Source of the DNA: Schmidtea nova
Lineage: Eukaryota
Assembly (NCBI GenBank): GCA_044892505.1
Contig: CM097884.1
Location: 14,260,001-14,324,000 of the forward strand
DNA length: 64,000 bases
Reading direction: 5' to 3'
Shown piece by piece: positions 34,174 through 54,690 of the stretch (position 1 is its first letter; every line of letters starts with the position of its first letter). Below the pieces are notes generated by a model. That model ran no database searches, was not told the DNA's origin, and worked only from the letters and a program-made list of their open reading frames with translations. The position numbers and the translations under genes were made by a program.

Positions 34174-35183
34174 CACTTTGTGTCATAATTTTGCGTACGG
34201 GTTAAAGAATGTTCTTAGAGGAAATAAAATTTAAAAATATTTCTATTTAACAAAGTTTACATTTAAATAACTTTATTCGAATAAATAAATATACGACATT
34301 TATGAACAGAACAAAATGAGTTCGAATTACAAAGAAATTTTGATTTTAAAATTGCACAATTTTGCGTACGATATAATTATGTATTTTGAAAGAGTTATTA
34401 TTTTAATATTTGATCCTTTTGCCTTGATGTTCTAAAACATCACATATTCGGCTTGGCATAGAATCGTATAGATGCTTAATTGCAAGTCTTTAAGTCTCAT
34501 TGATTGTCGCAACAGCCGAAGTAATTCGAAGCAGCAGTTCCATCCTGTTACGTGGCCGATTTTCCTTGTAGACAAGGTTAGACACCATAGACCAGACATT
34601 TTCAATAATGTTTAAATCTGGACTAAAAGGTGGCCAATTTAGAAGTATCACTCCATTGTCTTCGAAGTTTTTAACGGCATCTTTTGAAACATGTATTGGA
34701 CAATTGTCTTGCTGAAAGATGAAATTTCGACCCATATTCATTTTAATTAAAGGAAAAGCAACTAAGTGCAATATATCCATGTATTTACAGGTGTTTTGTT
34801 TCCCATTCATTAACTTAAAAGTCAGCAGTCCATTGCTCATTATCATTCCTCAGATCATAATTACTGGAGCTCTAAGCACTCGTCTGACATGAAATGGGGA
34901 CTTGTTGCTGTCAATCCAACTAAAATATGAGTCGCATCCATATAGAGTAAAGCGTTTTTGATCAGAAAATACAACGTTATACCAGTCTATATTATCTTTG
35001 ATATGATCTCTGGCAGCTCTAATCCGCTTAAGCCGATATTTCTTCAATAAAGTAAATTTGGATCTGAAAGTTTTGTATTCAAATTTCAGACATTTCAATG
35101 TCCTGGAAATTGTGCTCTTTGAGACATTAAATTTAAATTCTTCGATTATAGATGACGCAGATGATTTAACGCCAACAACATTA
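34174..35183 (-). mobile_element. Tc1-like transposon, 3-prime part (split by the gypsy insertion)
   Basis: VSKSTISRTLK, VVFSDQKRF, FQQDNCPIH, WPPFSPDLNIIENVW; TA-flanked end CACTTTGTGTCATAATTTTGCG. Confidence 0.9.
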
Positions 35184-36048
35184 TGTTGGGTTATTGGTGT
35201 TAAGTCGGTAGTTTCTGACTCCGGTGTTCTCTTTCAATTACAAAATAAACAAGACCCAACACAATAACTTTCTTTATTTGTCAATTGATCACAACTCTTT
35301 TTATCACAAAAAGTTACGCCGGTTCTGCACTCTTCGCGTGAGGGTAGAACACCCAATGGGATATCTCCCTCTCTGACACGCAATAGATTAAGTATAAACT
35401 CTACTTTTGGTTTTCTTTCGACGTCTCCTTCAAATGTCTTCTAACGATTTGATTCACGTTGCCTACTTTTATTCTTCAATCGGTTGGCCTCGAAACTTTG
35501 ACTTTGACCCAATGGCAATTTCGGCACTTTGCTCTCCATTTTTATACCATCTCTGTGTTGTCATTCTGTCGGTGTAATTGGATATTATCGAAGCCGCTCG
35601 CTTGTAATCGGATCTGATTAGCTCTGCTTGGTCGTAACTGGATATTTGTCGTTTATGGTTTTTCCGGCTCCCCCCCGGGGCATTCAATTTAATTTGATAG
35701 TTTAATGGCCTCGCTGATGCCCCGGGTTTCCCACATCGCTCGGATCTCCTACAAGCTCGGGTTTCCCACTAGCTCGGGCTTCCTATAGAATAATTAATTA
35801 TTTTAATTAATTTGTATTTTCCAATTATTTCCTTCTGGGGGTCCCTTTTTATTTTTATATACCCATATTCGAATTCGTCTCGTTGTTTGGTATCCTCCCA
35901 TACCAGTTTCCCCCGCTTAAACTTTATTTTAATTTTTTATAAATTTTTAATTAATGTTTGAACATTAATTATTATTTTTTTCAATTTTATATTTTTATTG
36001 ATTTATGCATTTTTAAATTTATTTTCTGTGATTTTCACAACCCCAACA
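35184..36048 (-). repeat. 3-prime LTR
   Basis: About 3 substitutions versus 50925-51789 by eye. Confidence 0.97.
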
Positions 36049-36050
36049 TA

Positions 36051-36064
36051 TCTCCCCCTTTTTT
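36051..36064 (-). promoter_or_regulatory. Polypurine tract
   Basis: AAAAAAGGGGGAGA, 2 nt before the 3-prime LTR. Confidence 0.9.
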
Positions 36065-37973
36065 AAAGATTCGTCCTCGAATCTACATATACACATATTT
36101 TTGATCATAAATCCTGACAATGATTCTATAATAATAATAGTAATGATAATATCACGAATAATAGTAATAATAAGGATAATTATAGTAATAATTGCAATAA
36201 TACTGGTAGTAATGACAATGACCTAAGTATAATAATGATGATGATAATAGTATTAGTAGTACCACTATAACGATAATAATGGTAGTAATACTATTAATAA
36301 TAGTGATAATACTAGTATAATATTNNNNNNNNNNNNNNNNNNNNNNNNNNNNNNNNNNNNNNNNNNNNNNNNNNNNNNNNNNNNNNNNNNNNNNNNNNNN
36401 NNNNNNNNNNNNNNNNNNNNNNNNNNNNNNNNNNNNNNNNNNNNNNNNNNNNNNNNNNNNNNNNNNNNNNNNNNNNNNNNNNNNNNNNNNNNNNNNNNNN
36501 NNNNNNNNNNNNNNNNNNNNNNNNNNNNNNNNNNNNNNNNNNNNNNNNNNNNNNNNNNNNNNNNNNNNNNNNNNNNNNNNNNNNNNNNNNNNNNNNNNNN
36601 NNNNNNNNNNNNNNNNNNNNNNNNNNNNNNTTTTCAAAATAATTTGTTATTTTAATTTATTAATTTTAATTTAAACTTTAATTCTATAAATTAATTAAGG
36701 AAGGGAAATTGATATTCCAAATAAATTTTATTTTCATTGCCATCTCTTTTAAAGTGACGCTACTTTAATATAAATTATAAAAGAAATGGCCGCCTCAGCT
36801 TCTCAGATATCGCCGCCGCAATAAAAGGCGGTGAACTAGGATTTTTATCATTATTTTATTTCCAAATTTTGTAAGTAAATTTTTTTTGTTTTATTTACTT
36901 TATTAATATAAATTTTATGTTTTTCAATTTTATGTTTTCAATTGAAATTATAATATATTTTTTTATATACATATTTTTATATGTTTTTAAGTCAGATTAT
37001 TAACATGGAAAAACTGCAATGGCTTTATATTCATAACTTTGTTTTATTTATTTTTTTTTTCATCGATGCCATCTACAGGATTGTGTATATGAAAATCAGA
37101 GAATTATTGTTCCGAACAAGTGGAAAATAATACTGAAAAATGAATGCTTTTGCAAAAAGGCTATGTTGTAATCCGAAAAGACAGAGTGATTTGCAAAACA
37201 TGTTGGTAGATATTTATTTTATTTTATTTTTTTTGCATTAAATATATATGATTATAAATAAAAATAGTAATAACAATAAAATATATACTTTTTTAGATAT
37301 CGTTTTACAGGATAATGGTCTGTGTGTATAAGCATGTGTGTGAACGAATGTCGAATCGATAACATTATTCATTAGATAATTATTAATCACGAAAATTGTT
37401 TATGAAGAATTTTTTTTTCTTTTTTTTTTTTCGACTTTATAATTTTGTCATAACTATATTTGGTACTTTAAAATAATGAACCCAATTGACATTCGTTCAA
37501 ATTTAAAAATTGTGAAGTGCATGTTTTACAGAATAATCCTTTTCTTAGTATTATTTCTGTGTGTTTATCTCTATATTTGGAATACTTTATCGGACAAGCG
37601 ATAACTCATCAGAACATTTAGATTATTATGCCAACGATTTACTTTTGCCAATTGAAACAGAAATACAATAATAATAATAGAAATGACAATATTAATAACA
37701 ATAATAATGATAATAATAACAACACCAATNNNNNNNNNNNNNNNNNNNNNNNNNNNNNNNNNNNNNNNNNNNNNNNNNNNNNNNNNNNNNNNNNNNNNNN
37801 NNNNNNNNNNNNNNNNNNNNNNNNNNNNNNNNNNNNNNNNNNNNNNNNNNNNNNNNNNNNNNNNNNNTGTCCAGGAGAGTATGATCCCGGTGATTAAGGG
37901 CTGTTGGTTTTTATTTAGATTTAAAATTGTCATCATATAACAACAATGATACTAACAATAATAATAATAGTAA

Positions 37974-38004
<31 letters not shown>

Positions 38005-38875
38005 GATAATGACCCTAATACTACTAATGATAATAGAGTGATATTCTAATAATGGGATCACAATGTTGATGAATTTAATAATAATTGTCTTCGTCTTATG
38101 CTTTTATGATATTTATGATAATTTCATTTTATTATTATTTTATTCTGTTTTATTTATTTATTTTGTTTTTGCCAATGTTTGTTTTATTGATTCCATCATC
38201 CCTTTGACGATATAATACCAATAATAATCTGATTAATAACTGTAATATAATAATTGACAACTTTCAATCACTACTCAGGGAGATTGATTTAGAGTTTTTT
38301 GTTTTTATTTCGTCCTGAATTTTAATTATTGTATATAATGCTTATAAGGATCGAAATTTTCTTTTGATATCGCACTTATAGTGATCGTATAATGATAGTA
38401 ACATTAACAACAGTAATAATAATAATAATAATATTAATAATAATAATAATAATAACTGCCAACCTCTAATCGCTGTCCAGGAGAGTACACCCCCGGTGAT
38501 TAAAGGTTGTTGGTTTTTATTTAGCTTCAGAATTTTTATTTATTCAATTCTTTTTTGTGTTTTATTTATTTATTAAAATTTTTTTTTTTTTGTTGTTGTG
38601 GGGGTTTGACTGGTGGGCGCCATTTTAACGAACTGAGACAGAATTACTAAATTTATTTATAAATAATCACATATATAATTAATATATTTTTAGTTCATTT
38701 TGATTTCCAGCCGCTTTGCCCCATTTCGATATCTGATAATCGTTTCTTCTTTTTCATACACCACCCCGTTGATGGTCATTGTTTCCCCGACGTCGACGTT
38801 GGATGCTGAAGCTTTCCTTTTGCGATCCTCCTTTTGTTCTATTGGGCCATACTCCATCGATAATTGGATTCTTAT

Positions 38876-40138
38876 TTATTTTATGGATTCTATCCATTCG
38901 CAATTCTCTTCAATCTCCTCTAAATACATTTCAGTTGCCCATTTCAACTTTTGAATACTCTTTTCTGTTCCTGTATCTATTTCATCCACTTCCATGTTTG
39001 TCTCGTCTACGACCATTATCGTTCTTTCCGATCTGGGAATTTCAGATATTGATTCCATATGTTGTCTAGTTTTATACTCTTGCAATGAATACTTTTTTGA
39101 TGGCCCTATCTTAGGCATTGATATATCATCGATCCAAAGGTTTTCTAGTCCCAAATATATCTTCCGAATGCTTTTGACGTCCTCTAAAGCTGAGTGAATA
39201 CCCATTTGCATCTCTTCTCCATAGAGTTCCTTCATTATGGTTTTGAGCTTATACCATTCCCCTCTTCTTGTCACTCCTTTTAATTGCAACGCTTGAGCAG
39301 TAGCTAGATCCCGTATGCCATAAAGATGATTTACCCATATCCCTAGGAATTGTAATTCTGCATGTAGGTCATGTCCTACGAGTATTTTCCCGATTGTCAG
39401 TTTTTGGATTTCCTTCATCTCTTCGTACTGGTCTTTTTGATTTCGGCTTGCCACCTCCGTTATTCCATGGATGTTTGAGTTGAAATGTTTGAGTCTTCCT
39501 CTAGGTGTTAAGAAGACATTTTTCACAACTTTCCCGTAATAGTTCATAATGGCCACCGCCAAGGGAATCATCTTTCCAGTCATGCTGGTTCCATATTCGG
39601 CATCAATGAACAATATTTTGTTCCGAATTTCTTCTATACCCATTTCCCTCCGAATAAAGGACAATTTTCTTTTTAACATTTCCTTTGTTATTTGTAGGAG
39701 TTCAAGATTTTCTTTCTGCATTGGCTCCTCGCTGGGTACATCATCAATTTCGTTTTTGATCCTTGTTTCCACTACAATTGTGGCATCCTCGTTTGCTGCT
39801 CTTAATATTTTCCCGATTGCTGGCTCCTTGATTTTCCATGACGAAAGTTTTTTGATCTCCCACCATATTTGATCATTTTCGTCTAGAATTTCCACCGTCC
39901 CTCTGATGACGTGGATATAGTATTCGTCTTTATCTGATATTTTTAGTTCCTTTGTCATTTGAAATTTTGATTTTCTGTCTATAGTGAATACTTGGACTTT
40001 CATTTTTCTGTCGTCCAACCTTAGATAATTTGGAATTTGCAAATTGTTGACTATCTGGAATCTTCTTTGGCCGGCATGATTTCTCATCATCTTCAGATAG
40101 CTGTCATACGTTTCTCTGGCCCATTGTATCTGCTCCAT
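38876..40138 (-). CDS. 420-aa accessory protein with REX4/ISG20-like DEDDh 3-5 exonuclease domain
   Basis: ExoI ILFIDAE, FNSNIHGIT, ExoII ILVGHDLHAEL, IRDLA, KLKTI...ExoIII HSALEDV. Confidence 0.9.
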   Translation of the reverse strand: MEQIQWARETYDSYLKMMRNHAGQRRFQIVNNLQIPNYLRLDDRKMKVQVFTIDRKSKFQMTKELKISDKDEYYIHVIRGTVEILDENDQIWWEIKKLSSWKIKEPAIGKILRAANEDATIVVETRIKNEIDDVPSEEPMQKENLELLQITKEMLKRKLSFIRREMGIEEIRNKILFIDAEYGTSMTGKMIPLAVAIMNYYGKVVKNVFLTPRGRLKHFNSNIHGITEVASRNQKDQYEEMKEIQKLTIGKILVGHDLHAELQFLGIWVNHLYGIRDLATAQALQLKGVTRRGEWYKLKTIMKELYGEEMQMGIHSALEDVKSIRKIYLGLENLWIDDISMPKIGPSKKYSLQEYKTRQHMESISEIPRSERTIMVVDETNMEVDEIDTGTEKSIQKLKWATEMYLEEIEENCEWIESIK

Positions 40139-40323
40139 TTCTTACAAACGATTATAATTTAAATTTGAATTAATTCAATTTTGACGCTAGGACTAAGATG
40201 GAGTACCCAAAGGATACTGTCTTAGTTGGTAGCGGTATAAATAAAAATATAAAATTACCGATTTAATTGAAGTTTTCTTAGTTATTTGAAATTAATTTAA
40301 ATTTTATGATGTCTAAGTTTACC

Positions 40324-40390
40324 TTATATACCCCCCTTTTGATTTTTCTATCCCTTTTTCTACTCCCTCACTCTTTTAGTATTAGCCAAT
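40324..40390 (-). promoter_or_regulatory. Putative internal Pol II promoter for the exonuclease ORF
   Basis: ATTGG (CCAAT box) at 40386-40390 about 55 nt upstream of TATATAAG at 40323-40330, about 190 nt before the ATG. Confidence 0.45.
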
Positions 40391-40514
40391 CAAATCACTT
40401 TCCCACTTTCCCATGCCGAAGAGTGCAGATTCACATGAAACAATTATAAAAGAAAATGTCACTAGATACTAAACTATTAATCTACCATAATTGCATGCAA
40501 ATAATTGTATCTCA

Positions 40515-43500
40515 CTATACAAACGTCTCCTCGTAATCGATCCAAGGTCTCGGGGCCTCGGATTGATTCGTAGAATGTCTTTCAGTTTTTCGAATTTCAA
40601 AGATGATGACAGATATGAGAATAATGACAAATATTGTTATAATGATAATTGTTATTAATAATGTTACACATAGTAATTCATTTTCCGTAGGTGAGGCTGA
40701 TATAGTTTTATTGCTTGGATTTGACACCTTGATGTGAGCAGTTGTGATTCGCGTTGATTGATTTAACTTTTGTGGGTAACTGTCCATCTCAGTATATGAC
40801 ACTCGAACAAATTTGTCCTCTACCAAGGTTAATTGCCAAAGAGTGGAGTATTTGGCTCGCCGATAATACTTGATTTTTATTAGCACTATTTGAGAGTTTG
40901 ATTTTGACCGTAGTTGTCGGAAAGATAAGATCTTTGATTCATTTCGGTTCTCTAATATTCCTTGTACTTTTCCACAATAGTATAAAACAGCTCTCTGATT
41001 GGGGTACGTTTGACGGGTGACATTTATCGTCTGATCATACACATGAAAGATAACTCTGTTTGTTTCATTGATCAAGTTTATCGTGTGTTGACTGGAATGG
41101 ATTAGAACCCACTGATCGGTGCTGTCTGTTCCATTTTCGTACAACGACTTTTCAAAATATTGTATTTGAATATTATACATCTGAAATAATTTTAAATTAA
41201 CATATTTTATAAATGGTTTTCTGCTGTTCAGTGTATCGATAGCATGATTTTGAAAGACAGTTTTTACTTGCTGGGATTCATGAGAGTTCCAATATACATT
41301 AATTCCATTGATTACTGGTTCAATGGATACGCGGTCTTGTAGTCTTTTTGTCCATACATTGACACGTATTAGATCATGGACTCTTGTAAAATTATCTTTA
41401 AGATTTACTCGTGTTATTATCCAAGGGTATTTATAATTCATTGCTAATTCACGCGCGACATGTGTATTTTTGTTATAGTTTAATTTTACTGGGGGCTCGA
41501 AATAGTTCAGCAGATTATTTATCTCTATTTCTTCCGTCGCTTCGCAATAATAGATCCATACTATTTGGGTACATGTTGAATACACATCGATATTTTCTAA
41601 TAATGGGACTTTCTTCATTGCATATGCTGGGAATGTTCGTATTGCCGACGCACACAAAACATTGATCATCATCACTGTTGTTATCAACAACGTTTTACTT
41701 AGGTAGTTTAATTGAGTAGGGTTTTTTGTAAATTTTTGTTTAATTACTTTCTCTTTTTCGCCGTTACTTGGTTTTGACCTCAAGGGATATCTTTCTTCCA
41801 GCGGAACTTTCTTACATCGGTTTACATGAATGACAATCGTTCCCGCCTTTTTATTATTTTGTGGACGCAATTTTAAATTCGTCTCGGTTGTATCACACAC
41901 CAAATAAGGTCCTTTAAATGGTCGCTGTAGTTTGGTAGACAGCCCTTTCGTTGGCTCTGGTTTATTTATGTACACCAAATCTCCAACTTTAATATCATGT
42001 GCATGCGCACGTTTATCATAGCATTCTTTATATGCTTCTTGATTATGCCTTATTTTCAATCCCGCTTTGACCCATACTGATTGCAGTCTTTCCTGCATTA
42101 CTACTTTGTAATCGGATACGTCCATGTATTGTGAGATTGGTGGTTGAAACTTTAAGTCAATCGGCATATTGTTTCGTCGTAGGTACATAAGATAAAATGG
42201 TGTTTCACCGGTGCTTTCATTCACTGCATTTCGATATGCAAACAAACATGGCTTAATGAACAAATCCCAATCTTTTTGTTTCCTGTTTACATAAGACGAA
42301 ATCATGTTAATTAATGTTCCATTAAATCTGTCGACTAACCCATCTGTTTGTGGGTGATATGGGGATGTATTAAGTTTTAGGATTCCGAATAATTCGGTTA
42401 TAGATTTAAATAATTCGCTTTGAAAGTTTGTTCCTTGGTCTGTGAGCAATTTTCTTGGTGCTCCGTACCGAAATATGATGTTTTCTACAAATATTTTCGC
42501 AACAGTTTCTGCCTTTTGATTCTGCATTGCATATGCTTCCGGCCATTTTGTTAGGTAATCACAAAATACGATGATATATTTATTTCCATTGGTTGTTTCT
42601 GGTAGTGGACCAACAATATCCATTGCTGTCATTTCCATTGGTGCTACCGGCACGGTCATAGGTTTTAAAGGAACTTTTATTTTCCTTCCTGTATTTCGCC
42701 TGGTCAGACAAACTTCACAAGTGTGACACCATTGTCTGACGTCTTGCTCTATCGTGTCCCAGTAATATTTCTGTTTTAATCTTGATAATGTTTTTCGAGC
42801 AGATAAATGTCCTCCCAATGCCCCATCATGATACAACAACAGTAATGCTGTTCGATGTTTTGCCGGTACTACTATTAATAAGTTTTCATTTTTCACACAT
42901 TTCAACAACCCATCATGGATGACGTATTTATGTTTTTCTTCCGCAATGTGCTTCCAGTCACTTTCTCTTTTTATTGTGACAGCATGTTTCCGCAATTGAT
43001 TCAATTCAACATCGTTTTCCTGATCACCCTGTAATTCCTTCATATTATTTGCCGTTTTAATTGCCATAAATATCGTATTTTCATAATTTACTTCATTTTG
43101 AATAATATTTTCTTCAGGGATTCTCGACATTGCGTCCGCATTTCCATTTGACTTCCCCGTACGGTACTTAATTTCAAAATCGTACTCCTGTAATGCAATT
43201 GACCACCTAATCAGCTTGCTTGCCGAATCTCGATGCTTCATTAACCATTGTAATGGGTTATGATCCGTAAATACAATAAACTTTCTCCCAACCAAATATT
43301 GTCGAAAATTAGTTATCCCATATACTAATGCTAGCGTTTCTTTTTCGATTGTGGAATAATTTTTTTCATGTGGTTTTAATGAACGGCTTGCATAAGCAAT
43401 TACGTGATCTTTCTCACCTTCTACTTGCTGTCCAAGTACTGCTCCTAATGCAAAATTGCTTGCATCTGTCATCAGTATAAATGGTTTTTTGAAGTTCGGA

Positions 43501-46500
43501 CATCTCAATATTGGTTGTTTAATAAGACTCTCTTTTAATTTATCAAATGCTTCTTGTTGAGCTGTTACCCATTTGAATTTAGTCTGCTTTTTTAGCAACA
43601 TGTTTAAAGGTTGTGCTACATGCGAAAAATTCCTTATGAATTTCCTATAATAGCTCGCTAATCCAAGAAATTGTCGGACTTGATCCGCATCTTTGGGGAT
43701 CGGATACTTTTTGATCTTTTCTACATTTTCTGGGTTTGGTTGTAACCCTCTCCGTGAAATTATGTGCCCTACGTAAACAACTTCTGATTTTCCCCATTCA
43801 CATTTTGAAGGTTTTATTTTTAAATTGGCTTCTATTAGTCGTTTAAACACTATTTCCACATCTTTTAAGTGTCCCTGAAAATTGTTTGAAAATATTATTA
43901 TATCATCAATATAGACTAATGCATGTGGTATATCACGCAAAACAAAATTCATACCTCTCTGGAATGTAGCTGGTGCTCCCGTTAGACCGAATGGAAGCAC
44001 ATTAAACTCATATAGTCCTTTCCCATCTGAAAATGCCGTTTTTCTCCTGTCTTCCTCTTTGACTTTAAATTTGTTATATCCTTTGTTAAGATCGATTACT
44101 GTGAAGAATTGTACTTCTCCCATCTGATCAAACATTTCTTGCGGAACTGGTATAGGATATGTGTCTTTTCTTGTCACTTGGTTTAATTTCCGATAATCAA
44201 CACAAAATCGTAATTCACCGTCCTTCTTTTTCACTACTACTATTGACGATGAGAATGGTGATGAACTATCTCTTATTATTTTGAATTCCTTCATGGCTTT
44301 AATTTGCCGATCGCTTTCTTCTTGATGTATATATGGAATTCTGTACGGTCGTATTTTTATAGGAGTTTCATCAAGCAATGGTATTTCGTGTTCAATTATC
44401 TGAGTGAGTCCTAGATCATACTCATGTTTCGCGAATGCATTTTTATACCTTTTCAATAATGCCGCAAATTCTTGTCTTTGTGCCTCTGTTAGATCATCAC
44501 TTGTCACTTGTGGTTCTTTATAGATTTTGATATTTCTAGGTAGTTTTTGCACTTCCTCCCCTTTCATTTTTGACAGTTTTCCCAACTTTGTTTTGGGTTT
44601 CATTTGAACAGATTTTGTGCTACAATTAGCTATTCTTACTGGCACGGTTTTGTCTTTAATTTTTACTATTTCGTCACACATAGGTACGTCGTACTTTTCT
44701 ATTAGTTTTTGATTTGGTTCGAATATACACTCTTCTTCGGAAACATTTTCTACATTAGCGTAGTATATCACTTCGCTTTTTGGTGGTACTTCCAACGTTT
44801 GATTTAAAAAGACCTCTCCTGCTTCATGCACTACCTCATCAGTCTGCCTTTTTATTAATTTGCCCGTCTTTAAGTCCAGTGAGATTCCTTGTAATTGTTC
44901 CATGATATCCATGCCAATCAAACATTTGACAGGGCTTTTTCTCATTACTGATACCCAATGAATTACTTCCTGATTTCCTATATTCAACTTTACTTCTAGT
45001 TTTCCAATAATATTTAATACGTTATGCGTCATTGATTTAATAATTTTTGTTGTTGGCTTTATTTTCGCTTTTTCCTGTCTCGTTAAGAAACTCTCCGATA
45101 CTATACTGTGACTCGAGCCTGAATCCAATAACGCTTCCACTTTTCTTTCATTAAACTGTATGGATATTCTAGGTTGTTTTCCTCCAATTTCTATTGTCAT
45201 CAATGCGTAACTACATGGTAACCCAAGCATGTTCTTTCTTTCAATTTCGGCGCTTGATGGCTCAATCTTCTCTAGTTCGATTTTAATCTCATCAACTGGC
45301 TTCATTTCTCTCAACTTCTCACTTGGGTATATTGGAGCTGTTGGTATTAATGTCGGTGTGTACCATTTAGAAAGAGTGTCAATTCCTGTTAATTTTGGCA
45401 TTGGTTCAAGCAAGAACCTGGTTTCGGGTTCTATTCTACTTTTCATTATGCTCCTTCGAAAATTATTTTGCTCTGATCTGCCGCCACCGTTCTCATTATC
45501 AGGACCATTATTTTTATCCTCATGATCGCATAGTGATTCTTCGCTTTTCTGATCATTTCTCAATTGCGCTCGTACATTTGCCATTTCTTTGTATTGATGA
45601 CTTGTAATGAAGAATCTAGCCAAAAATGGAATACAACCAATCATCATTTTCCATGACCATCCGGAAATTGTATATATCCTGTGAGTGGACAATACTTGTG
45701 ATATTATCACCTTTACCGTTACTGCAATTACATAAATACCAATTAAACCTGCACAGGCTTGTCCCAAAAACATGAATTTTCCCCAAATCTTTTCCATTGT
45801 TTTGTAAGTAGCTCGTTTAAAATGATCAGGTGTCAGCAAGTATTCGTAGTTAACTTTCCCTTCTCCATTCGGCAATATGGTATCAATCATTTCTGAAATC
45901 ACGCGTTCCTTTTTTGACGGAAATAACAAATTTCTTTGGGCTTCTTCGATGTCTTCGCTCGCATACAAACCCATTTGTGCCATTTTATTCATTGATGTAA
46001 AATTTATTAAGTATTCCAAATTCGTCAATTCCAATTTATCTGGTGTTCTTACTCCTCGGTAATCTGGTAGCGCTATCCATGAATCTTGTGCTAAGCGATA
46101 TAATGGGGCTAATAATCGATTACATTGCAAGGTTTTTGGTTTAACTTGTTCCCCCAGCAGTATTCGGGTTATCGGTTCCATAAATCGTAGTTTCCCGCCA
46201 ACACTTACTGGCAATTCATTTGTACATTTCTCGTATTTTACTATTTTCACTGTAATTTCTTTGCATCGGTAACTGTACAGCGCTTCTCCAAAGATTCTAG
46301 CAAATACACCATTTTCTGAAATTAGCATGGGTGCTACTAAATTCGGGTTTGTAACCGCCATCGCCATTCGATTTCGAAGTATTTCTTTATTCAATTTACA
46401 ATCGTTCAAGATCATTTCTCTATATATGTTCTCCATGGTATTTTGGCTAAAATGAAATAAATAATCAATTTTATTATTAAAATAATGAGTTAGTTTTATA

Positions 46501-47462
46501 TCATCCCTGTGAATTCTCGTCTTCGCTTCATGTACAGTCGTTTTTGCCACATATACTCCTTTGTAATTTGTTACATAGACTGTTTGACCACATTTGCTCG
46601 TTATCTCCTTTTTAATAAAGCGCATGCTGTCCGTTGGCAAGGTTGACATTAAAACCGTCGCTGTTTGTCTTGTCCACAGTGGAATTGACCTTACTGTGCC
46701 ATTTTGTTTATAATTCATATTAAAGTTGTCTGGTCTCTCCCTAAATTGCTCTCCGGTTAACTCTTTGAAATTCATTGTTTTTAAATGAGCCAGGTTACAT
46801 ATATTGGTTTTAACATCGTAAACGAGGATTGACTCTCCCGTGTGACAACTAGTTTGCTTCATATTACAAAATGGATGAGTTTGTAGTTTTCCGGTATCAT
46901 CATCAAAAGATCCTTCGAACATTCTCAATTCGGTTAAGTATCCCTCTATTACCACTGTGTGTTTAATTATTTTCTCATTTATTTTATACGGTTCACCTTC
47001 ACAGTCACCGTCTGATTTCATCACTACCTTCACCACTAATGTTTCTCGAATTTGATGATTTAATTTCGCTTTTAATCGAATTTCAGGGCTGATTTTTAAT
47101 TCCCCCGTTTGGAAGGCTGTTAAGCAATTTTCCGGCAATACATCCACCGGTCGTGGAATGGCGTGCATTTTGATTAATGACGTATGGCTCCATTTACCAC
47201 AGAAGAATACAAAAGTGGTTCGTTTTACAATGCATTCTCTAACTTTGGTACGCCGTAAATCTGACTCTTGATTGACATAGTATTTTATTTCGTTTTCAAT
47301 CTTTAATTTTCGAGGGTATGCGTCTGGGCACTCTGACATATCAACCACTGAGTAAATTTTCCACATTTCGGTTTGTGAACAATCGTATGCCACCAATGAC
47401 GTCGTTTGTGCAATAACTGCACATAGAATAATCATCATGAACATTATCCAAGGGAATATCAT
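40515..47462 (-). CDS. env-pol: Env1-PR-RT-RNaseH-IN-Env2 polyprotein, 2315 aa
   Basis: Signal peptide + AYDC glycoprotein + TM; LLDSGS protease; YIDD RT; TDAS/EKE/TDH RNase H; HHCC + D,D integrase and GPY; second signal peptide, N-glycosylated ectodomain and C-terminal TM. Confidence 0.95.
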   Translation of the reverse strand: MIFPWIMFMMIILCAVIAQTTSLVAYDCSQTEMWKIYSVVDMSECPDAYPRKLKIENEIKYYVNQESDLRRTKVRECIVKRTTFVFFCGKWSHTSLIKMHAIPRPVDVLPENCLTAFQTGELKISPEIRLKAKLNHQIRETLVVKVVMKSDGDCEGEPYKINEKIIKHTVVIEGYLTELRMFEGSFDDDTGKLQTHPFCNMKQTSCHTGESILVYDVKTNICNLAHLKTMNFKELTGEQFRERPDNFNMNYKQNGTVRSIPLWTRQTATVLMSTLPTDSMRFIKKEITSKCGQTVYVTNYKGVYVAKTTVHEAKTRIHRDDIKLTHYFNNKIDYLFHFSQNTMENIYREMILNDCKLNKEILRNRMAMAVTNPNLVAPMLISENGVFARIFGEALYSYRCKEITVKIVKYEKCTNELPVSVGGKLRFMEPITRILLGEQVKPKTLQCNRLLAPLYRLAQDSWIALPDYRGVRTPDKLELTNLEYLINFTSMNKMAQMGLYASEDIEEAQRNLLFPSKKERVISEMIDTILPNGEGKVNYEYLLTPDHFKRATYKTMEKIWGKFMFLGQACAGLIGIYVIAVTVKVIISQVLSTHRIYTISGWSWKMMIGCIPFLARFFITSHQYKEMANVRAQLRNDQKSEESLCDHEDKNNGPDNENGGGRSEQNNFRRSIMKSRIEPETRFLLEPMPKLTGIDTLSKWYTPTLIPTAPIYPSEKLREMKPVDEIKIELEKIEPSSAEIERKNMLGLPCSYALMTIEIGGKQPRISIQFNERKVEALLDSGSSHSIVSESFLTRQEKAKIKPTTKIIKSMTHNVLNIIGKLEVKLNIGNQEVIHWVSVMRKSPVKCLIGMDIMEQLQGISLDLKTGKLIKRQTDEVVHEAGEVFLNQTLEVPPKSEVIYYANVENVSEEECIFEPNQKLIEKYDVPMCDEIVKIKDKTVPVRIANCSTKSVQMKPKTKLGKLSKMKGEEVQKLPRNIKIYKEPQVTSDDLTEAQRQEFAALLKRYKNAFAKHEYDLGLTQIIEHEIPLLDETPIKIRPYRIPYIHQEESDRQIKAMKEFKIIRDSSSPFSSSIVVVKKKDGELRFCVDYRKLNQVTRKDTYPIPVPQEMFDQMGEVQFFTVIDLNKGYNKFKVKEEDRRKTAFSDGKGLYEFNVLPFGLTGAPATFQRGMNFVLRDIPHALVYIDDIIIFSNNFQGHLKDVEIVFKRLIEANLKIKPSKCEWGKSEVVYVGHIISRRGLQPNPENVEKIKKYPIPKDADQVRQFLGLASYYRKFIRNFSHVAQPLNMLLKKQTKFKWVTAQQEAFDKLKESLIKQPILRCPNFKKPFILMTDASNFALGAVLGQQVEGEKDHVIAYASRSLKPHEKNYSTIEKETLALVYGITNFRQYLVGRKFIVFTDHNPLQWLMKHRDSASKLIRWSIALQEYDFEIKYRTGKSNGNADAMSRIPEENIIQNEVNYENTIFMAIKTANNMKELQGDQENDVELNQLRKHAVTIKRESDWKHIAEEKHKYVIHDGLLKCVKNENLLIVVPAKHRTALLLLYHDGALGGHLSARKTLSRLKQKYYWDTIEQDVRQWCHTCEVCLTRRNTGRKIKVPLKPMTVPVAPMEMTAMDIVGPLPETTNGNKYIIVFCDYLTKWPEAYAMQNQKAETVAKIFVENIIFRYGAPRKLLTDQGTNFQSELFKSITELFGILKLNTSPYHPQTDGLVDRFNGTLINMISSYVNRKQKDWDLFIKPCLFAYRNAVNESTGETPFYLMYLRRNNMPIDLKFQPPISQYMDVSDYKVVMQERLQSVWVKAGLKIRHNQEAYKECYDKRAHAHDIKVGDLVYINKPEPTKGLSTKLQRPFKGPYLVCDTTETNLKLRPQNNKKAGTIVIHVNRCKKVPLEERYPLRSKPSNGEKEKVIKQKFTKNPTQLNYLSKTLLITTVMMINVLCASAIRTFPAYAMKKVPLLENIDVYSTCTQIVWIYYCEATEEIEINNLLNYFEPPVKLNYNKNTHVARELAMNYKYPWIITRVNLKDNFTRVHDLIRVNVWTKRLQDRVSIEPVINGINVYWNSHESQQVKTVFQNHAIDTLNSRKPFIKYVNLKLFQMYNIQIQYFEKSLYENGTDSTDQWVLIHSSQHTINLINETNRVIFHVYDQTINVTRQTYPNQRAVLYYCGKVQGILENRNESKILSFRQLRSKSNSQIVLIKIKYYRRAKYSTLWQLTLVEDKFVRVSYTEMDSYPQKLNQSTRITTAHIKVSNPSNKTISASPTENELLCVTLLITIIIITIFVIILISVIIFEIRKTERHSTNQSEAPRPWIDYEETFV

Positions 47463-47564
47463 CGTCTTCCTTAGTTTTGGACTTACTCTTCCGTTTAATT
47501 GCCTTTGCGGTGCATCGTTTTCCGGTTTCTTTCTTTTCTTTATTATCGATAAATTTAATGTTTT

Positions 47565-50500
47565 CTACCCTCCACGCTCTCTCAGCCAATTACTTAAAGA
47601 CTCATTTATTAGTCGAGCCGCAATGTCAATTAACTTATCAAGCTTGTCTGACTTTGTAAATGCATGAATACTGATCTCTGAAACAACGTAGGTTAGAATT
47701 ATTAGCACTACTTCTTTATCGATCCCATTTTCGATCAACTTTTCTATTACTTCACAGTTACAAAAGCTATCCTCTTTGCCCAATTTCCGCACTACTCCTG
47801 GAAGTCTGATTTTCACTTCATCTACTATTCCTTTCAATTCCTCTTCCGTTTCTGTCTCTATTTTTAGGATTGGGTATACGACTCCAACCAAATTTCTTAT
47901 TACGTCACTTGTTTCTTCAACTTCCTGCTCTAATTTTACTAAGGTTTTCTTCATCTCATACAATGTTCTAGTCTTCGTATTCGCACTTTTTATTTCACCT
48001 TTTTCGATATTCGTATCTTCAATAACTGCCATTTCTGCTGTCTGAGCATTATTATTAACCCTCTTTTCCCCCTTATAATCATCAGTAACTATTTCAATTT
48101 CGCTTTCCTTTATTTCTTCTGTTTGCTCATCTGTGTCTGAAAATTCAACTTTGTCAAGCATCCTCGAATTATATTCTTTATTTGCGATTATGCGATTTAT
48201 CAAATACCCTTGACTTCCATTAGTACTTAAATACCCATATTCATCCAGTTCCTGTGGCACACATCCGTAGTCATATAAATATTCATCGTCATCCAATTCT
48301 TCCCCTTTATATCTCAGCACTATAATTCCATCTTTACCTAACATTTCCGCAGCTCTTTTACGCACTTTTCGAACTTTCGTACACCAGTGTTCCTCTACAT
48401 ACTCAGTTTTCCCAATATCTTCATATTCTATTGCAATTGTTAACGAATTTAACTCAACTCTATCTTTTCTAAGCTCTTTACCCAATTTTCTCATTATTCT
48501 CTTTAAACATTGTCTATATCCCGTTCTTCTAAACAAACAGGGTCGTATCGCATTAGCAAGTTCTAATTTTTCCTTTTGCCCAAATTCAGATTCCTCTATT
48601 AATTTTACTATTTCTTTAATTTCGTTTTCGTCACCAATACATAAAACATCATTTAGCTCCTTTACTATTTGCATCGGATCACTTCTTGTCATTTCACTGT
48701 TACTCATCATACTGGCTATTTGTAATTCATTTTTGTTCCCTGGTATAAGACCACAATCTATTAAATATTCATCATTTTCTAAATCTCTATTTTTAAACTT
48801 TAATTCGACTACCCAGCCTTCACATTTCTCTCTTAGTCTCCTTTTTAAATCTTTTACGCGATCATAGGCTTCACAACGACAAGTAATCACATTTTTATCA
48901 TTTTCATTAACAACATCAATAGAAATAAAATCTAACCATTTATTTTCTCGAAACGCTTTCCCAAATTTTCTCATCAATTCTTTAATTTCTTCTCTATTTG
49001 TTACATTTATTTGATAATAATTAGCACACAAATTAATCACGCCTTTCAATTTTCTCATACTTAACGACATTTGACTCAGGCTTTTAACCGATACCAATAT
49101 TTTAGATGATTCTTCCACGCTAGCTTCTAGTAATTTCTCAAGTCTTTTCATCATCATGGTAGCCTTTTCGCTTTCCAAATCGTCTTTTGTACACCCAGTT
49201 GTCGTGTCAGCTTCTGTCATGTCTTGCTGCGATCCATACATCATGTGATTATCCAATTCATCATCAGATTCAAACTTGGACATTAAACGATCTAAACGTC
49301 GACCCATTTCTTTCACTTGGTTTTCAATCTTTTCATTGAAATCATCTGATTGAACAAAAGCCACGTTGTCTGTCTGCAGTTTATCATTTTGAAATCTTAT
49401 TGATTTTTTTAATATAGGTTTCTGAAATTTGTCGACATTCCTCGGGCATGATCTAGCCATGTGTCCATACCCTCTACATGAATGACATTGAATTTGACCT
49501 TGAAGGTTCACTCTATCTCTTTGTGGGGATGGCGAAGTTGATGGAGACCTCGATCTAGCAAAACAATTCCGAGAGACATGTCCTTTCCTTCCACAATTGT
49601 AACATTGCACATTATCGTTATTACGCTGATCATTAAAATTTAGTTTATTGAAACTTTTCTCACCATTACCCTTCAACCAATCTGGCCACATTCGTTTTGG
49701 GCTTCGTTGAACGTTGTTTTTAGACCAGCATTGATTGCTGTTATGTCCCATCCTTTGACAATAATCACACTGAATTGGAGTTGGACTTTTTGGAGACCTA
49801 TTTTTGAACCAACATTGATTAACATGATGTCCTATTCGTTGGCAATGGCTGCATTGAATTGGCCTCTCTTTTTCATCAATTTGAACATTTGTTGATTTAT
49901 TTGGCTCAAATCTTTGTCTAAACGTTGGTGATGGACTAATTGATTGCTGAAGCCGATTGTTTTTGACTGGAGTTATGGACCGTTCTCTGGGTTCATTGAT
50001 GATGGCAAACGATTCTGATTTTGGCTGTGAACTTTTCAGATTTAACTCAATTTTCATCGCCTTTTTGATTAACTCATCAAAGTTATTGAAGTCCACATAA
50101 CATAATGCCTTTTTGATCTCCTTTTTGACTCCCGTTAAGAACTGGTCTTGTAGCAATTCTTTCACCTGCTTTGCCACTTCAATCTGTTCCGGCTTTACTT
50201 CGAATGCTTTCTCTGCAAGAGTAGTCAAGTGGTACGCAAATTCACTTACCGATTCCTCTGATTTTTGCACTCGATTATAGAACTTCTGCCGCATTATCCG
50301 TTTTATATCCCCTCCAATTAGTTTCGCGGCTAAGGCATCTTTCAATTTCGTCCAGTCATTCGCAATTGTTCTTTTGTCAATTTGTTGCCAGGCTTCTCTC
50401 GCTGCTCCCTTCAGATATAGTGGCAATCTTTGCACCATTGTCGCTTGGCTCCATCCATAGGCTGTGGCGTACATGTAGTAATCCGCCATAAAATCAACGA

Positions 50501-50648
50501 ATTCCACTGGATCACCGCCATACTGATTTACTGGCAGTTTCTGGCAGCTAGCATAGTCATTGCCATTGCCGTTGCTGGTGGACATGGGCGTATCATCCTG
50601 ATTGTTTGTATTACTCATTTTTGTTTCTGGTTGTTTATTACTTCTCAA
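47565..50648 (-). CDS. gag: Gag, 1027 aa, with 4 CCHC knuckles and an extended C-terminus with two ubiquitin-like domains
   Basis: Capsid-like LPLYLKGAAREAW...Q...ESVSEF...FLTG; four CX2CX4HX4C at 49450-49856; Ubl-like repeats at 48718-48930 and 48245-48450. Confidence 0.92.
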   Translation of the reverse strand: MRSNKQPETKMSNTNNQDDTPMSTSNGNGNDYASCQKLPVNQYGGDPVEFVDFMADYYMYATAYGWSQATMVQRLPLYLKGAAREAWQQIDKRTIANDWTKLKDALAAKLIGGDIKRIMRQKFYNRVQKSEESVSEFAYHLTTLAEKAFEVKPEQIEVAKQVKELLQDQFLTGVKKEIKKALCYVDFNNFDELIKKAMKIELNLKSSQPKSESFAIINEPRERSITPVKNNRLQQSISPSPTFRQRFEPNKSTNVQIDEKERPIQCSHCQRIGHHVNQCWFKNRSPKSPTPIQCDYCQRMGHNSNQCWSKNNVQRSPKRMWPDWLKGNGEKSFNKLNFNDQRNNDNVQCYNCGRKGHVSRNCFARSRSPSTSPSPQRDRVNLQGQIQCHSCRGYGHMARSCPRNVDKFQKPILKKSIRFQNDKLQTDNVAFVQSDDFNEKIENQVKEMGRRLDRLMSKFESDDELDNHMMYGSQQDMTEADTTTGCTKDDLESEKATMMMKRLEKLLEASVEESSKILVSVKSLSQMSLSMRKLKGVINLCANYYQINVTNREEIKELMRKFGKAFRENKWLDFISIDVVNENDKNVITCRCEAYDRVKDLKRRLREKCEGWVVELKFKNRDLENDEYLIDCGLIPGNKNELQIASMMSNSEMTRSDPMQIVKELNDVLCIGDENEIKEIVKLIEESEFGQKEKLELANAIRPCLFRRTGYRQCLKRIMRKLGKELRKDRVELNSLTIAIEYEDIGKTEYVEEHWCTKVRKVRKRAAEMLGKDGIIVLRYKGEELDDDEYLYDYGCVPQELDEYGYLSTNGSQGYLINRIIANKEYNSRMLDKVEFSDTDEQTEEIKESEIEIVTDDYKGEKRVNNNAQTAEMAVIEDTNIEKGEIKSANTKTRTLYEMKKTLVKLEQEVEETSDVIRNLVGVVYPILKIETETEEELKGIVDEVKIRLPGVVRKLGKEDSFCNCEVIEKLIENGIDKEVVLIILTYVVSEISIHAFTKSDKLDKLIDIAARLINESLSNWLRERGG

Positions 50649-50902
50649 TTCGTAATATGGTCGGTTTGGTACAACTTTTTCTCTTCTAAATTTTAATATA
50701 TCAATTATAAATTTTACCTTTTATTTTAATTTCAACAGTATAAATCTTTCCACAATTATCAACAAACTTTTATCAACCCTTGATTCGATTTACTGACTTT
50801 TTTCTTTTAATCAATTTCACAATTTCCAAACTTTTTAGCAACTTTTAATTTCTTTTTGCCAATAAATATTCGATTTCTTTTTGCAACGCTTCACCGACTT
50901 TG

Positions 50903-50920
50903 ATCACGTCGGGCTCACCA
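50903..50920 (-). promoter_or_regulatory. Primer-binding site, tRNA-Trp
   Basis: TGGTGAGCCCGACGTGAT, 4 nt after the 5-prime LTR; complements the metazoan tRNA-Trp 3-prime end (ATCACGTCGGGGTCACCA) at 17 of 18 positions. Confidence 0.85.
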
Positions 50921-50924
50921 AATA

Positions 50925-51789
50925 TGTTGGGTTATTGGTGTTAAGTCGGTAGTTTCTGACTCCGGTGTTCTCTTTCAATTACAAAATAAACAAGACCCAA
51001 CACAATAACTTTCTTTATTTGTCAATTGATCACAACTCTTTTTATCACAAAAAGTTACGCCGGTTCTGCACTCTTCGCGTGAGGGTAGAACACCCAATGG
51101 GATATCTCCCTCTCTGACACGCAATAGATTAAGTATAAACTCTACTTTTGGTTTTCTTTCGACGTCTCCTTCAAATGTCTTCTAACGATTTGATTCACGT
51201 TGCCTACTTTTATTCTTCAATCGGTTGGCCTCGAAACTTTGACTTTGACCCAATGGCAATTTCGGCACTTTGCTCTCCGTTTTTATACCATCTCTGTGTT
51301 GTCATTCTGTCGGTGTAATTGGATATTATCGAAGCCGCTCGCTTGTAATCGGATCTGATTAGCTCTGCTTGGTCGTAACTGGATATTTGTCGTTTATGGT
51401 TTTTCCGGCTCCCCCCCGGGGCATTCAATTTAATTTGATAGTTTAATGGCCTCGCTGATGCCCCGGGTTTCCCACATCGCTCGGATCTCCTACAAGCTCG
51501 GGTTTCCCACTAGCTCGGGCTTCCTATAGAAAAATTAATTATTTTAATTAATTTGTATTTTCCAATTATTTCCTTCTGGGGGTCCCTTTTTATTTTTATA
51601 TACCCATATTCGAATTCGTCTCGTTGTTTGGTATCCTCCCATACCAGTTTCCCCCGCTTAAACTTTATTTTAATTTTTTATAAATTTTTAATTAATGTTT
51701 GAACATTAATTATTATTTTTTTCAATTTTATATTTTTATTGATTTATGCAATTTTAAATTTATTTTCTGTGATTTTCACAACCCCAACA
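50925..51789 (-). repeat. 5-prime LTR (TATAAAA at 51281-51287, AATAAA at 51014-51019)
   Basis: Near-identical to 35184-36048; followed by the PBS. Confidence 0.97.
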
Positions 51790-52010
51790 ATTATTATGAT
51801 TAATGTAACTTCTTATTCTTCTTTTATCATGTTGGTTTAAAATTTCTTTCCTCCCACGCTTTAACTGCTTTAACGCTTAAACGGCTTTTTCAATTTTTTG
51901 TCAATTACTTATTAAAACCAGTCTGATTGTGTCTGTTTGGATCTACACCTATCGAAAAGTTATGAGTCCGCAATTACTCATCATTTACTTGTGAAAACGA
52001 AGACATTTGT
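51790..52010 (-). mobile_element. Tc1-like transposon, 5-prime part (HTH)
   Basis: GRKEILNQHDKRRIRSYINHN joins in frame across the TSD to NVVGVKSSASSIIEEF at 35183. Confidence 0.85.
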
Positions 52011-52153
52011 GTGTGCTAGCGTGTATACCTATTAAATTTTATTCTAAGTCAAAATCCCCTAGACAAGGACATTTTCAAAAATTTTCTAAGTCCGTTAAAC
52101 AAAGAACTTTTTCAAAAATTGTATTAGCTAACTCCCCTCCTCAATAGACAAAG

Positions 52154-52739: not shown

Positions 52740-54640
52740 AGTCACGCCCACAACCCCACTCAATCCACCATGTACAACAACGATTCTATCGCCACTCCCC
52801 CATCATATGTCCTAACGCGCTTTAACCACAAAACACGCCAAATCCCCATTTTCACGGATTTGCACACCGATATCGATTAATAGGATTAATAGGAATGCTT
52901 TTTACATGACGTACAATGGTTTCCCACTTTCTTCACCACTTTCACCCACTTTCATTTCCCACTTTCATCAACCACCAATGCTATCATAGAAATTCATTGC
53001 CGCGTTTTAGGAGGCGTTCGGCCCCCTACAGAACCGTCTTATTCATCCACTTCACGCCCAATTTTGTTCTTTTTGGGTCCCGACGGCACACCCTCGTTGT
53101 GGTTCCACATTTTCGAATGGCGCACGTCTTCCTTCCAGAAATCACGAGCCGATTACTTTCTTGACAGTTTACCCGCTGAGTTGATAGCCGAGCTTGCTCA
53201 GAAAATATCAGATGCCCTTTATTCTGATAGCCCATACGAGAACTTAAAAGGACTCATAGTAACCAAATACACCACATCGCAAACCCAAGCCCTACAAAAA
53301 TTATTAGCCCCACAACGTTACTCGGGCGAACAACCGAGCCAACGCGGCCATACCTGGACTCTCCAAAATTTTACACCTATTGACACACCAATTCCTTTCT
53401 GCACTGCCCCACCACCTACAAACTTCGCTTGCATTGTTCGACTCCGTAGACCCATATCATCTAGCAAAAATAGCTGACCGCATTTACGCATTTCAACCCC
53501 ACAAACCGCGCACTGATAATTACACACCACCACAACCATCTCCCATTGTTAACGCAACACATAAACCTGAAAACCACTACGCTAGCAACGTTGAAAGATA
53601 TCCCAACCATACACCGCCATTACATCTAGTACAACATCCCAACCGTCCACCGGCAACACGAGCACGTACAACCTAGTTACAACGCACCACTAATTTGCTA
53701 TTTCCACAGCCGATTTTGAAAACATGCACAGAAATGCTGCATTTGTTGCACTTCCGAATTACACAATTCTCATAACCCAGTCATTCCAATCTGTATCCAC
53801 CACCACCTGTTCAAGAACGAAGCCAAATTGTGCATCGAAGGATGAACATGGCACACCAGCAGTCACCACCATGCAAAAAATTAACTGAGTCATCGGATAT
53901 TCCTAGACGCTCCGATGACTTCCTGACAGTGAACACCTCTTCTCACAGCAAACCACGTCCAACGTACACAATATCAACTCCGCCAGTAAGCACCATCTCA
54001 GAAACAACCGCTACTCTCTCCACAGTACTATTTTCTCACACGACACCACCACCATAGCAATACAAGCACCAACACTAAAACAAGAACCAACCAGCACACC
54101 TTGCACAACACTAGCAACAACACCAACAACATTACCCGACACACCACACAGAGCACCATCCGCATCACTATCAGCAGCAACATTCACAAATTCCACAACT
54201 AACAATACCAGAAGCACAGCTCACATTTTCTGACGACGAAACCCGCACAAACTACACACACATTCTAGCACAGCCTCCACAAACCACATCTCCATCTCCA
54301 CTGTCAGCAACACTAACTACACCACTTTTAAACAGAATCCCTGGAAATTTCACCATCAACACCCAACTGTTCGAAGAATACGGTCAACCCAAACAACGCA
54401 CAATAACATTCCTCGCAGATACAGACTCGTCATATTCAATCCTACCCACCACCTTCACCGCAGACACACCCTGCTCATCCTCTGCCATTGCCGCGAAAAG
54501 TACACATATAAAGCTATCTGGTGCAAAAACAATCAAGTTTCGCCTCCCAAGTTTTTTTACTCCGATCCCTGAATCCGGTTTTGCATTACCCAAACGCTCC
54601 GCGTACTTCGGCGGGGGCTATTCTAGTGCCTCCGTCATAT
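52740..54640 (+). mobile_element. Truncated CsRn1/Kabuki-like Ty3/gypsy element (gag + protease)
   Basis: PSLWFHIFE, YENLKGLI...QKLL...GEQPSQ, LP..LQ..LA...LAKIADRI, CYFHSRF.KHAQKC, FLADTDSSYSILP; frameshifted. Confidence 0.8.
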
Positions 54641-54690
54641 TCGTATTTTAAATATTTATATATAAAGTAAATTAAATTAAATATTATATC

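Follow-up and report, generated by a model that had tools for sequence, protein, structure and literature searches.

The closest described systems to the locus studied here are the Burro (GYPSM1) elements, whose giant planarian Gypsy polyproteins carry Retrotrans_gag, CCHC, and a Ubi2/SUMO-like domain (PF11976) ahead of BCL-2 (PMC6431247). A mononegavirus-type env lies in frame between gag and pol and is followed by PR-RT-RH-IN, all within one polyprotein; the Burro authors suggest that such elements meddle with apoptosis and ubiquitination (PMC6431247). The Burro1 IAP reportedly shields stem cells from apoptosis (Lee et al. 2026, as cited in PMC13465017). Available excerpts of PMC11410931 and PMC8532177 add nothing further on domains. 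The presence of a ubiquitin-like domain (Ubl) in this kind of polyprotein is thus already known (PMC6431247). The Burro account mentions no duplication, helical partner, or late motifs. Our search of main texts likewise turned up no description of any of the three in elements of this type, although one may exist in Lee et al. 2026 or Grohme et al. 2018. What the present analysis adds is the duplication, the helical domain that accompanies each Ubl (tentatively TFIIS-N-like), and the late motifs.

The window that we analyzed (64,000 nucleotides of Schmidtea nova contig CM097884.1) contains an LTR element of 16.6 kb on the minus strand at 35184-51789, and the open reading frame (ORF) with both Ubls belongs to it. 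Its LTRs, target-site duplication, and PR-RT-RH-IN order place it among the Ty3/Gypsy LTR retroelements. Its parts, in minus-strand order, are the following.

51790-51793 and 35180-35183: target-site duplication ATTA, 4 bp, flanking both LTRs
50925..51789, minus strand: 5' LTR, 865 bp, ends TG...CA
50905..50923, minus strand: primer-binding-site-like sequence directly inside the 5' LTR, presumably tRNA-Trp-like
47565..50618, minus strand: ORF1, 1017 aa, Gag plus two helix-Ubl units plus Bcl-2-like domain (codons 50618-47568 plus stop)
50034..50531, minus strand: capsid (Retrotrans_gag, Pfam, E 5.9e-8)
49446..49853, minus strand: four CCHC zinc knuckles (aa 256, 284, 339, and 378; Pfam)
47565..47567, minus strand: in-frame stop that ends ORF1 after the Bcl-2-like domain; the frame beyond is env-pol
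47397..47462, minus strand: hydrophobic segment behind the Bcl-2-like domain (hydropathy 2.45), predicted membrane anchor and Env signal
45507..47444, minus strand: Env, Monjiviricetes-type fusion glycoprotein (Pfam E 1.6e-85), in frame between gag and pol
45690-45776, minus strand: Env transmembrane segment (hydropathy)
45312..45344, minus strand: PTAP and YPX3L late-domain-like motifs in a p6-like spacer between Env and protease
42351..45131, minus strand: Pol, Gypsy order PR-RT-RH-IN (Pfam)
45114-45131, minus strand: protease active site
43758-44234, minus strand: RT (Pfam)
43182-43571, minus strand: RNase H (Pfam)
42351-42869, minus strand: integrase (Pfam)
38876..40141, minus strand: accessory ORF with a DEDD exonuclease domain (RNase_T, E 7.8e-7), within the element and downstream of pol
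36050-36069, minus strand: polypurine tract, preceding the 3' LTR
35184..36048, minus strand: 3' LTR (865-bp repeat comparison)

This insertion is young, because its LTRs show 3 differences over 865 bp and it is still flanked by the ATTA duplication. The stop that ends ORF1 is private to this copy. Among 30 close copies, 28 were readable at this position (L029 and L030 were not) and 27 of them are open, the sole stop being that of the window. Open frames of 3,395-3,402 codons hold 24 of 140 scored genome matches (2,301 candidates). The element therefore normally encodes a single Gag-Env-Pol polyprotein, which the stop interrupts in this copy. The preliminary description had placed the Ubls in Gag; they do lie in a minus-strand ORF with gag, but in most close copies that ORF is the front third of Gag-Env-Pol and not a stand-alone protein. 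It made no mention of the Bcl-2-like domain, of an env in frame, or of the Burro elements already in print.

Several further features of the window deserve mention. After the integrase (window 40515-41900), about 450 residues have no Pfam match and end in a strongly hydrophobic C-terminal segment; judging from its sequence, this stretch is possibly a second membrane protein. What we take to be a decayed Tc1/mariner-like transposase gene (motifs at window 34490-35183 and 51790-52100) seems to be the element's insertion site. Window 52893-54651 is GC-rich and C-skewed, with broken frames resembling a decayed second Gypsy gag-protease. An intron-free 413-codon ORF (window 29068-30309) presumably resembles the splicing factor ESS2/DGCR14.

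The element shares with Burro the gag with CCHC knuckles, the Ubl and then BCL-2 before env, and the env in frame between gag and pol. It differs in size: we find 16.6 kb, 865-bp LTRs, and a frame of about 3,400 codons, whereas Burro exceeds 30 kb and encodes 4,873-5,140 aa (PMC6431247). It also differs in cargo, since its three ORFs have no MATH, BIR, or ankyrin Pfam match; a related element in genome G000, described below, does have such cargo. Its own extras are the two Ubls, each behind a four-helix domain, and the exonuclease ORF. Likened in this way to the published descriptions of Burro, the element appears to be a compact Burro relative that falls outside strict Burro by size and cargo.

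The C-terminal half of ORF1 is made up of five domains, given here with the method that delimits each.

48939..49187, minus strand: four-helix domain 1, aa 478-560 (model); its last helix carries RKFGK
48705..48938, minus strand: Ubl1, beta-grasp, aa 561-638 (profile, AlphaFold model)
48459..48677, minus strand: four-helix domain 2, aa 648-720 (model); its last helix carries RKLGK; tentatively a TFIIS-N-terminal-like fold
48183..48455, minus strand: Ubl2, beta-grasp, aa 722-812 (profile, AlphaFold model)
47568..47966, minus strand: Bcl-2-like domain, holding a third RKLGK (aa 944)

The claim of two ubiquitin-like beta-grasp domains is borne out. The segments on which it was based are present, and profile matches and the AlphaFold fold agree: a beta-grasp is modelled, and Ubl families are matched. 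Single sequences are not enough to reach this assignment by Pfam, where Rad60-SLD scores 16.8-18.3 bits, below the cut-off of 23.8; at E<=0.5, Rad60-SLD is found in 5 of 24 units searched one by one and ubiquitin in 4 of 24. A profile of 24 units searched against the PDB gave 354 rows, the best 60 of which are all ubiquitin or Ubl proteins, single domains included (best E values: IQUB 2.6e-5, NEDD8 3.7e-5, ISG15 7.3e-5). The AlphaFold model, built from a 14-row alignment, has four helices followed by a beta-grasp, twice (mean pLDDT 83); its pTM of 0.49 leaves the relative placement of the modelled domains loose. In Ubl2, the loop ahead of the last strand is modelled at low confidence, and the DDDEY in Ubl2 is invariant.

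Fold searches give the same answer. Ubl1 matches the Rad23 UBL (Z 9.2, rmsd 1.8 over 76 residues) and Ubl2 the USP11 UBL (Z 7.7, rmsd 2.1 over 75 residues). Against the PDB we obtained 245 matches at E<=0.001, with di-ubiquitin and ISG15 at the top, and against BFVD we matched viral ubiquitins and the inserts of the BVDV polyprotein. The best structural rows include the Rad23 UBL, BAG6, and Dsk2, tied within Z 1; identity to all Ubls is 15-22%, and no single family stands out. No diglycine ends either of the window's two Ubls, and none is conserved in 16 further sequences scanned. In being embedded beta-grasp domains without a diglycine, they resemble the type II integral Ubls (Rad23, Dsk2, BAG6, UHRF1, IQUB, and USP11). 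They differ from these in their low identity, in a charged residue at the Ile44 position, and in a fixed N-terminal four-helix partner.

Each Ubl is part of a larger repeat, a unit of four helices plus Ubl with a period of 162 aa. The first and second units are homologs: BLASTP aligns them at E 3e-9 (27% over 97 aa), and their local score of 100 compares with a mean of 34 and a maximum of 74 in 2,000 shuffles. The Ubls had been called tandem; they are indeed two homologous copies, but they are not head-to-tail, as a four-helix domain lies between them. They had also been described as each preceded by a helical RK(F/L)GK unit. The words at aa 550 and 710 do form the last helix of the bundle, but the literal word is unconserved: across families, only a glycine and an arginine four places later are kept, both nearly invariant. 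Helices and Ubl occur together in all 14 loci examined, with two units in 12 and one unit in 2. Unit-bearing loci fall into three clades of an RT tree (drawn without L103 and L105, which have no RT match), about 50% identical to each other. In the unit tree, single units fall in with the second units and not with the first (support 91/95, long branches), which fits one old duplication. Alignments omit L097-L099, L101, and L110, near-duplicates of L093.

Outside genome G000, the unit occurs once in the Gag proteins P0007 and P0010 and twice in P0003. An exhaustive search of a 1.84-billion-protein library yielded 10 proteins at E<=0.001, each with one cluster member and an uninformative name; word-index protein searches returned no relatives, which by the nature of such searches is weak evidence. 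Our searches found no host donor gene of the unit. In the predicted protein P0004, a phosphomevalonate kinase domain is joined to a Gag closely related to this one; the fusion is probably a gene-prediction chimera.

The Bcl-2-like domain that follows the units lies below the Pfam cut-off on its own (E 0.012), and a related family passes it. Its profile matches Bcl-xL (E 1.4e-7, profile positions 83-152), which points to BH1/BH2 homology. A third RKLGK near the C terminus, reported in the preliminary description, is present at aa 944, but it falls within this domain, outside any unit, and is unconserved. We considered RK(F/L)GK as a BH3-like motif or a third repeat and rejected both, as the word is not conserved and profile comparison finds the Bcl-2-like domain unlike the helical unit (hhalign probability 0.6%).

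One proposed role for the Ubls was that of built-in ubiquitin, recruiting ESCRT ubiquitin receptors and acting as late domains. The element has an env, and no late motif is conserved in its Gag-to-Bcl-2 part. Fused ubiquitin can replace late domains, although release requires an intact L8/I44 patch (PMC2958808). Like those engineered fusions, this enveloped element joins a beta-grasp to Gag in cis. However, the engineered fusions use true ubiquitin and need L8/I44, whereas here the residue equivalent to Ile44 (from the 24-unit profile alignment) is basic, Lys in Ubl1 and Arg in Ubl2, and separate PTAP and YPX3L motifs stand behind Env. First units furthermore have an acidic residue at the Arg42 position. 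The unit is also kept in an element in which we detected no capsid or Env. As an account of this element, built-in ubiquitin for ESCRT budding is therefore unsupported, given the patch and the dedicated motifs, and we regard it as quite improbable.

The late-type motifs recur at one place. YPX3L lies 65-68 residues ahead of the protease motif in all 13 two-unit sequences read, and PTAP lies five residues upstream of it in 9; note that these 13 are related copies and not independent, and that L111 has no protease motif in this reading. Each of six two-unit stretches (6/6) of ~3,000 aa holds a single YPxxxL, always at the Env-protease spacer. Motifs of the PTAP and YPX3L types are reported to bind TSG101 and ALIX. 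In this element they are likely functional and would handle budding, an assignment made from their sequence. The budding idea nevertheless survives for relatives, because neither motif was found in the Env-protease spacer of the one-unit families L106 and L109, which have Env, and because the Ile44 position is Ile or Met in 6 of 10 second units. In L106 and L109 that position is Tyr.

The other proposed role was a decoy for the host ubiquitin system. In that role, or as a proteasome tether, each Ubl would stand in for a Rad23/Dsk2-type UBL or for NEDD8/ISG15 and keep DUBs, E3s, or proteasome receptors engaged. The presence of the Rad23 UBL, BAG6, and Dsk2 among the best structural rows fits such a tether, as does the richness of Burro-type cargo in RING, TRAF, and IAP genes. 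Receptors of the proteasome and DUB type, however, read the hydrophobic patch of a Ubl, and here the Ile44 position is charged. The even, low identity to all Ubls singles out no family to be mimicked. The absence of a diglycine argues against a substrate mimic in particular and leaves a non-canonical decoy standing, which we think unlikely.

Ubiquitin inserts in pestivirus polyproteins are cut by host DUBs, and the BVDV inserts are among our viral fold matches. A role as a processing signal, with host DUBs cutting behind each Ubl, would follow the same pattern. But there is no GG behind either Ubl, and the element has its own protease; we consider this explanation scarcely credible.

The helical half of the unit raises another possibility, namely that it is a captured TFIIS N-terminal domain (TND) whose targets would be nuclear, either transcription elongation factors or the element's integrase, and to which the Ubl is attached as a partner. 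The helical domain is similar in size and helical topology to the TNDs of MED26, Elongin A, and TFIIS and to the LEDGF IBD, and it shows a weak in-register sequence likeness to the TND family. In Foldseek, the Elongin A TND is best by probability (0.96) and TM-score (0.58), but at E 0.29, and no match reaches E<=0.001. The MED26 TND ranks second in the VIA search (Z 9.3, rmsd 3.8 over 82), and seven TND-family chains are among the top 50; rank 1 is a PI3K-gamma regulatory solenoid, and Z under 13 is common among helical bundles. A profile built from 14 host TNDs gives 9.8-16.5 bits for 4 of the 26 helical domains, against at most 6.1 for reversed controls, yet the two in the window itself are at 1.5 and 3.5 bits. 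The P0013 unit has a Trp in its last helix at the place of the host-TND Trp.

Against this stand hhalign probabilities of 2.2, 2.9, and 6.9%, all under 7%, and helical-domain sequence profiles that found no PDB match under E 0.03. The TND is a five-helix bundle (PMC9987994), whereas four helices are modelled here and the short middle helix is missing. The precursor is, moreover, predicted to be membrane-anchored. We tentatively treat TND homology as a lead rather than an assignment, and a captured TND at work in the nucleus as quite unlikely. If it were true, an LTR element would own a fold of the type used for LEDGF-type integrase tethering and Pol II elongation-factor docking, duplicated and kept in three clades. 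The fold would serve to guide the element's integration or its transcription, or to tie up elongation factors of the host. As a separate observation, G000 has tandem small TFIIS-N-domain (Med26 family) ORFs at C1:216.19-216.25 Mb (~1.2 kb spacing) and C2:283.99-284.98 Mb.

The units could also be structural spacers or passengers without a host target. They evolve much faster than the capsid (capsid dN/dS 0.02), and many of their invariant residues coincide with fold-keeping positions of ubiquitin, such as those of the K27-D52 pairing, so conservation does not by itself point to a binding surface. Compared with the sister subfamily L107, however, dN/dS is 0.17 in Ubl1, 0.12 in Ubl2, 0.12 and 0.51 in the helices, and 0.36 in Bcl-2. 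Other comparisons give 0.10-0.27, with several saturated, and Ubl1 against L093 gives 0.82. The unit is under purifying selection in most comparisons, with dN/dS well below 1. It is also kept in all three RT clades and in one non-autonomous element. We strongly doubt that it is a spacer.

That non-autonomous element is found in G000 (L123-L129; C1:531.92-531.95 Mb and 552.69-552.72 Mb). It is high-copy and LTR-flanked, has 3.8-4.4-kb direct repeats that are 99.8-99.96% identical, and carries the helix-plus-Ubl unit in both copies (profile i-E 1.5e-8 and 7.6e-6). Its cargo consists of protease, ankyrin, RING-TRAF-MATH, and BIR-RING (IAP) genes; among its frames of at least 150 codons we found no match to capsid, Env, or RT. 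It looks like a non-autonomous Burro1-type element. Because the unit is present in this element beside TRAF, IAP, and ankyrin genes, it travels with host-modulating cargo. An autonomous Burro polyprotein with MATH, Ubl, and BCL2 was not found among 150 scored BIR and Rad60-SLD rows (longest frames 451 and 2,290 codons), from searches of the genome that were crowded by other repeats.

A second high-copy element of G000 is separate from these (L142-L148, from 150 scored of 2,223 candidates). It encodes a near-canonical ubiquitin, which ends in diglycine in four of the five copies read. This ubiquitin follows an HSP70 fragment and is fused in frame to the DUF1759 (BEL/Pao-type) Gag after it. We read this as a true ubiquitin-Gag fusion, closer to the original budding idea than are the Ubls of the window, and its ubiquitin is likely cut by a host DUB. 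Our literature search returned no account of a fusion of this type.

Our preferred reading, to which we give a probability of roughly 55%, is that the diglycine-less Ubls of the duplicated 162-residue module form a host-protein-binding scaffold beside the Bcl-2-like domain, with PTAP and YPX3L handling budding. We observe the fold, the repeat, the domain order, the lack of diglycine, the basic Ile44 position, the late-type motifs, and the purifying selection. A host-facing role is favored because the unit accompanies IAP, TRAF, and ankyrin cargo and because a Burro IAP is reported to protect stem cells (cited in PMC13465017). Hydropathy suggests that, in open-frame copies, the hydrophobic segment behind the Bcl-2-like domain would anchor Gag, units, and Bcl-2 on the cytosolic face of a membrane. 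The same segment would double as the Env signal, opening Env into the lumen. The element's protease may then free the accessory block of units and Bcl-2, whose units would bind host proteins of cell survival or of the ubiquitin-proteasome system, using surfaces outside the Ile44 patch. Counter to this reading are the one-unit families, with no late motifs and Tyr at the Ile44 position, and the dN/dS of Ubl1 against L093.

Burro-type elements are among the few transposons reported to help their host via captured anti-death genes (cited in PMC13465017). Their Ubl had previously only been named; here it is delimited as part of a compact four-helix-plus-Ubl unit that is foldable in the model and expressible alone. 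Our analysis also separates this unit from budding, as canonical late motifs sit behind the in-frame Env. The unit's binding partner, and the use of TSG101 and ALIX by an invertebrate env-bearing Gypsy element, are thus now testable.
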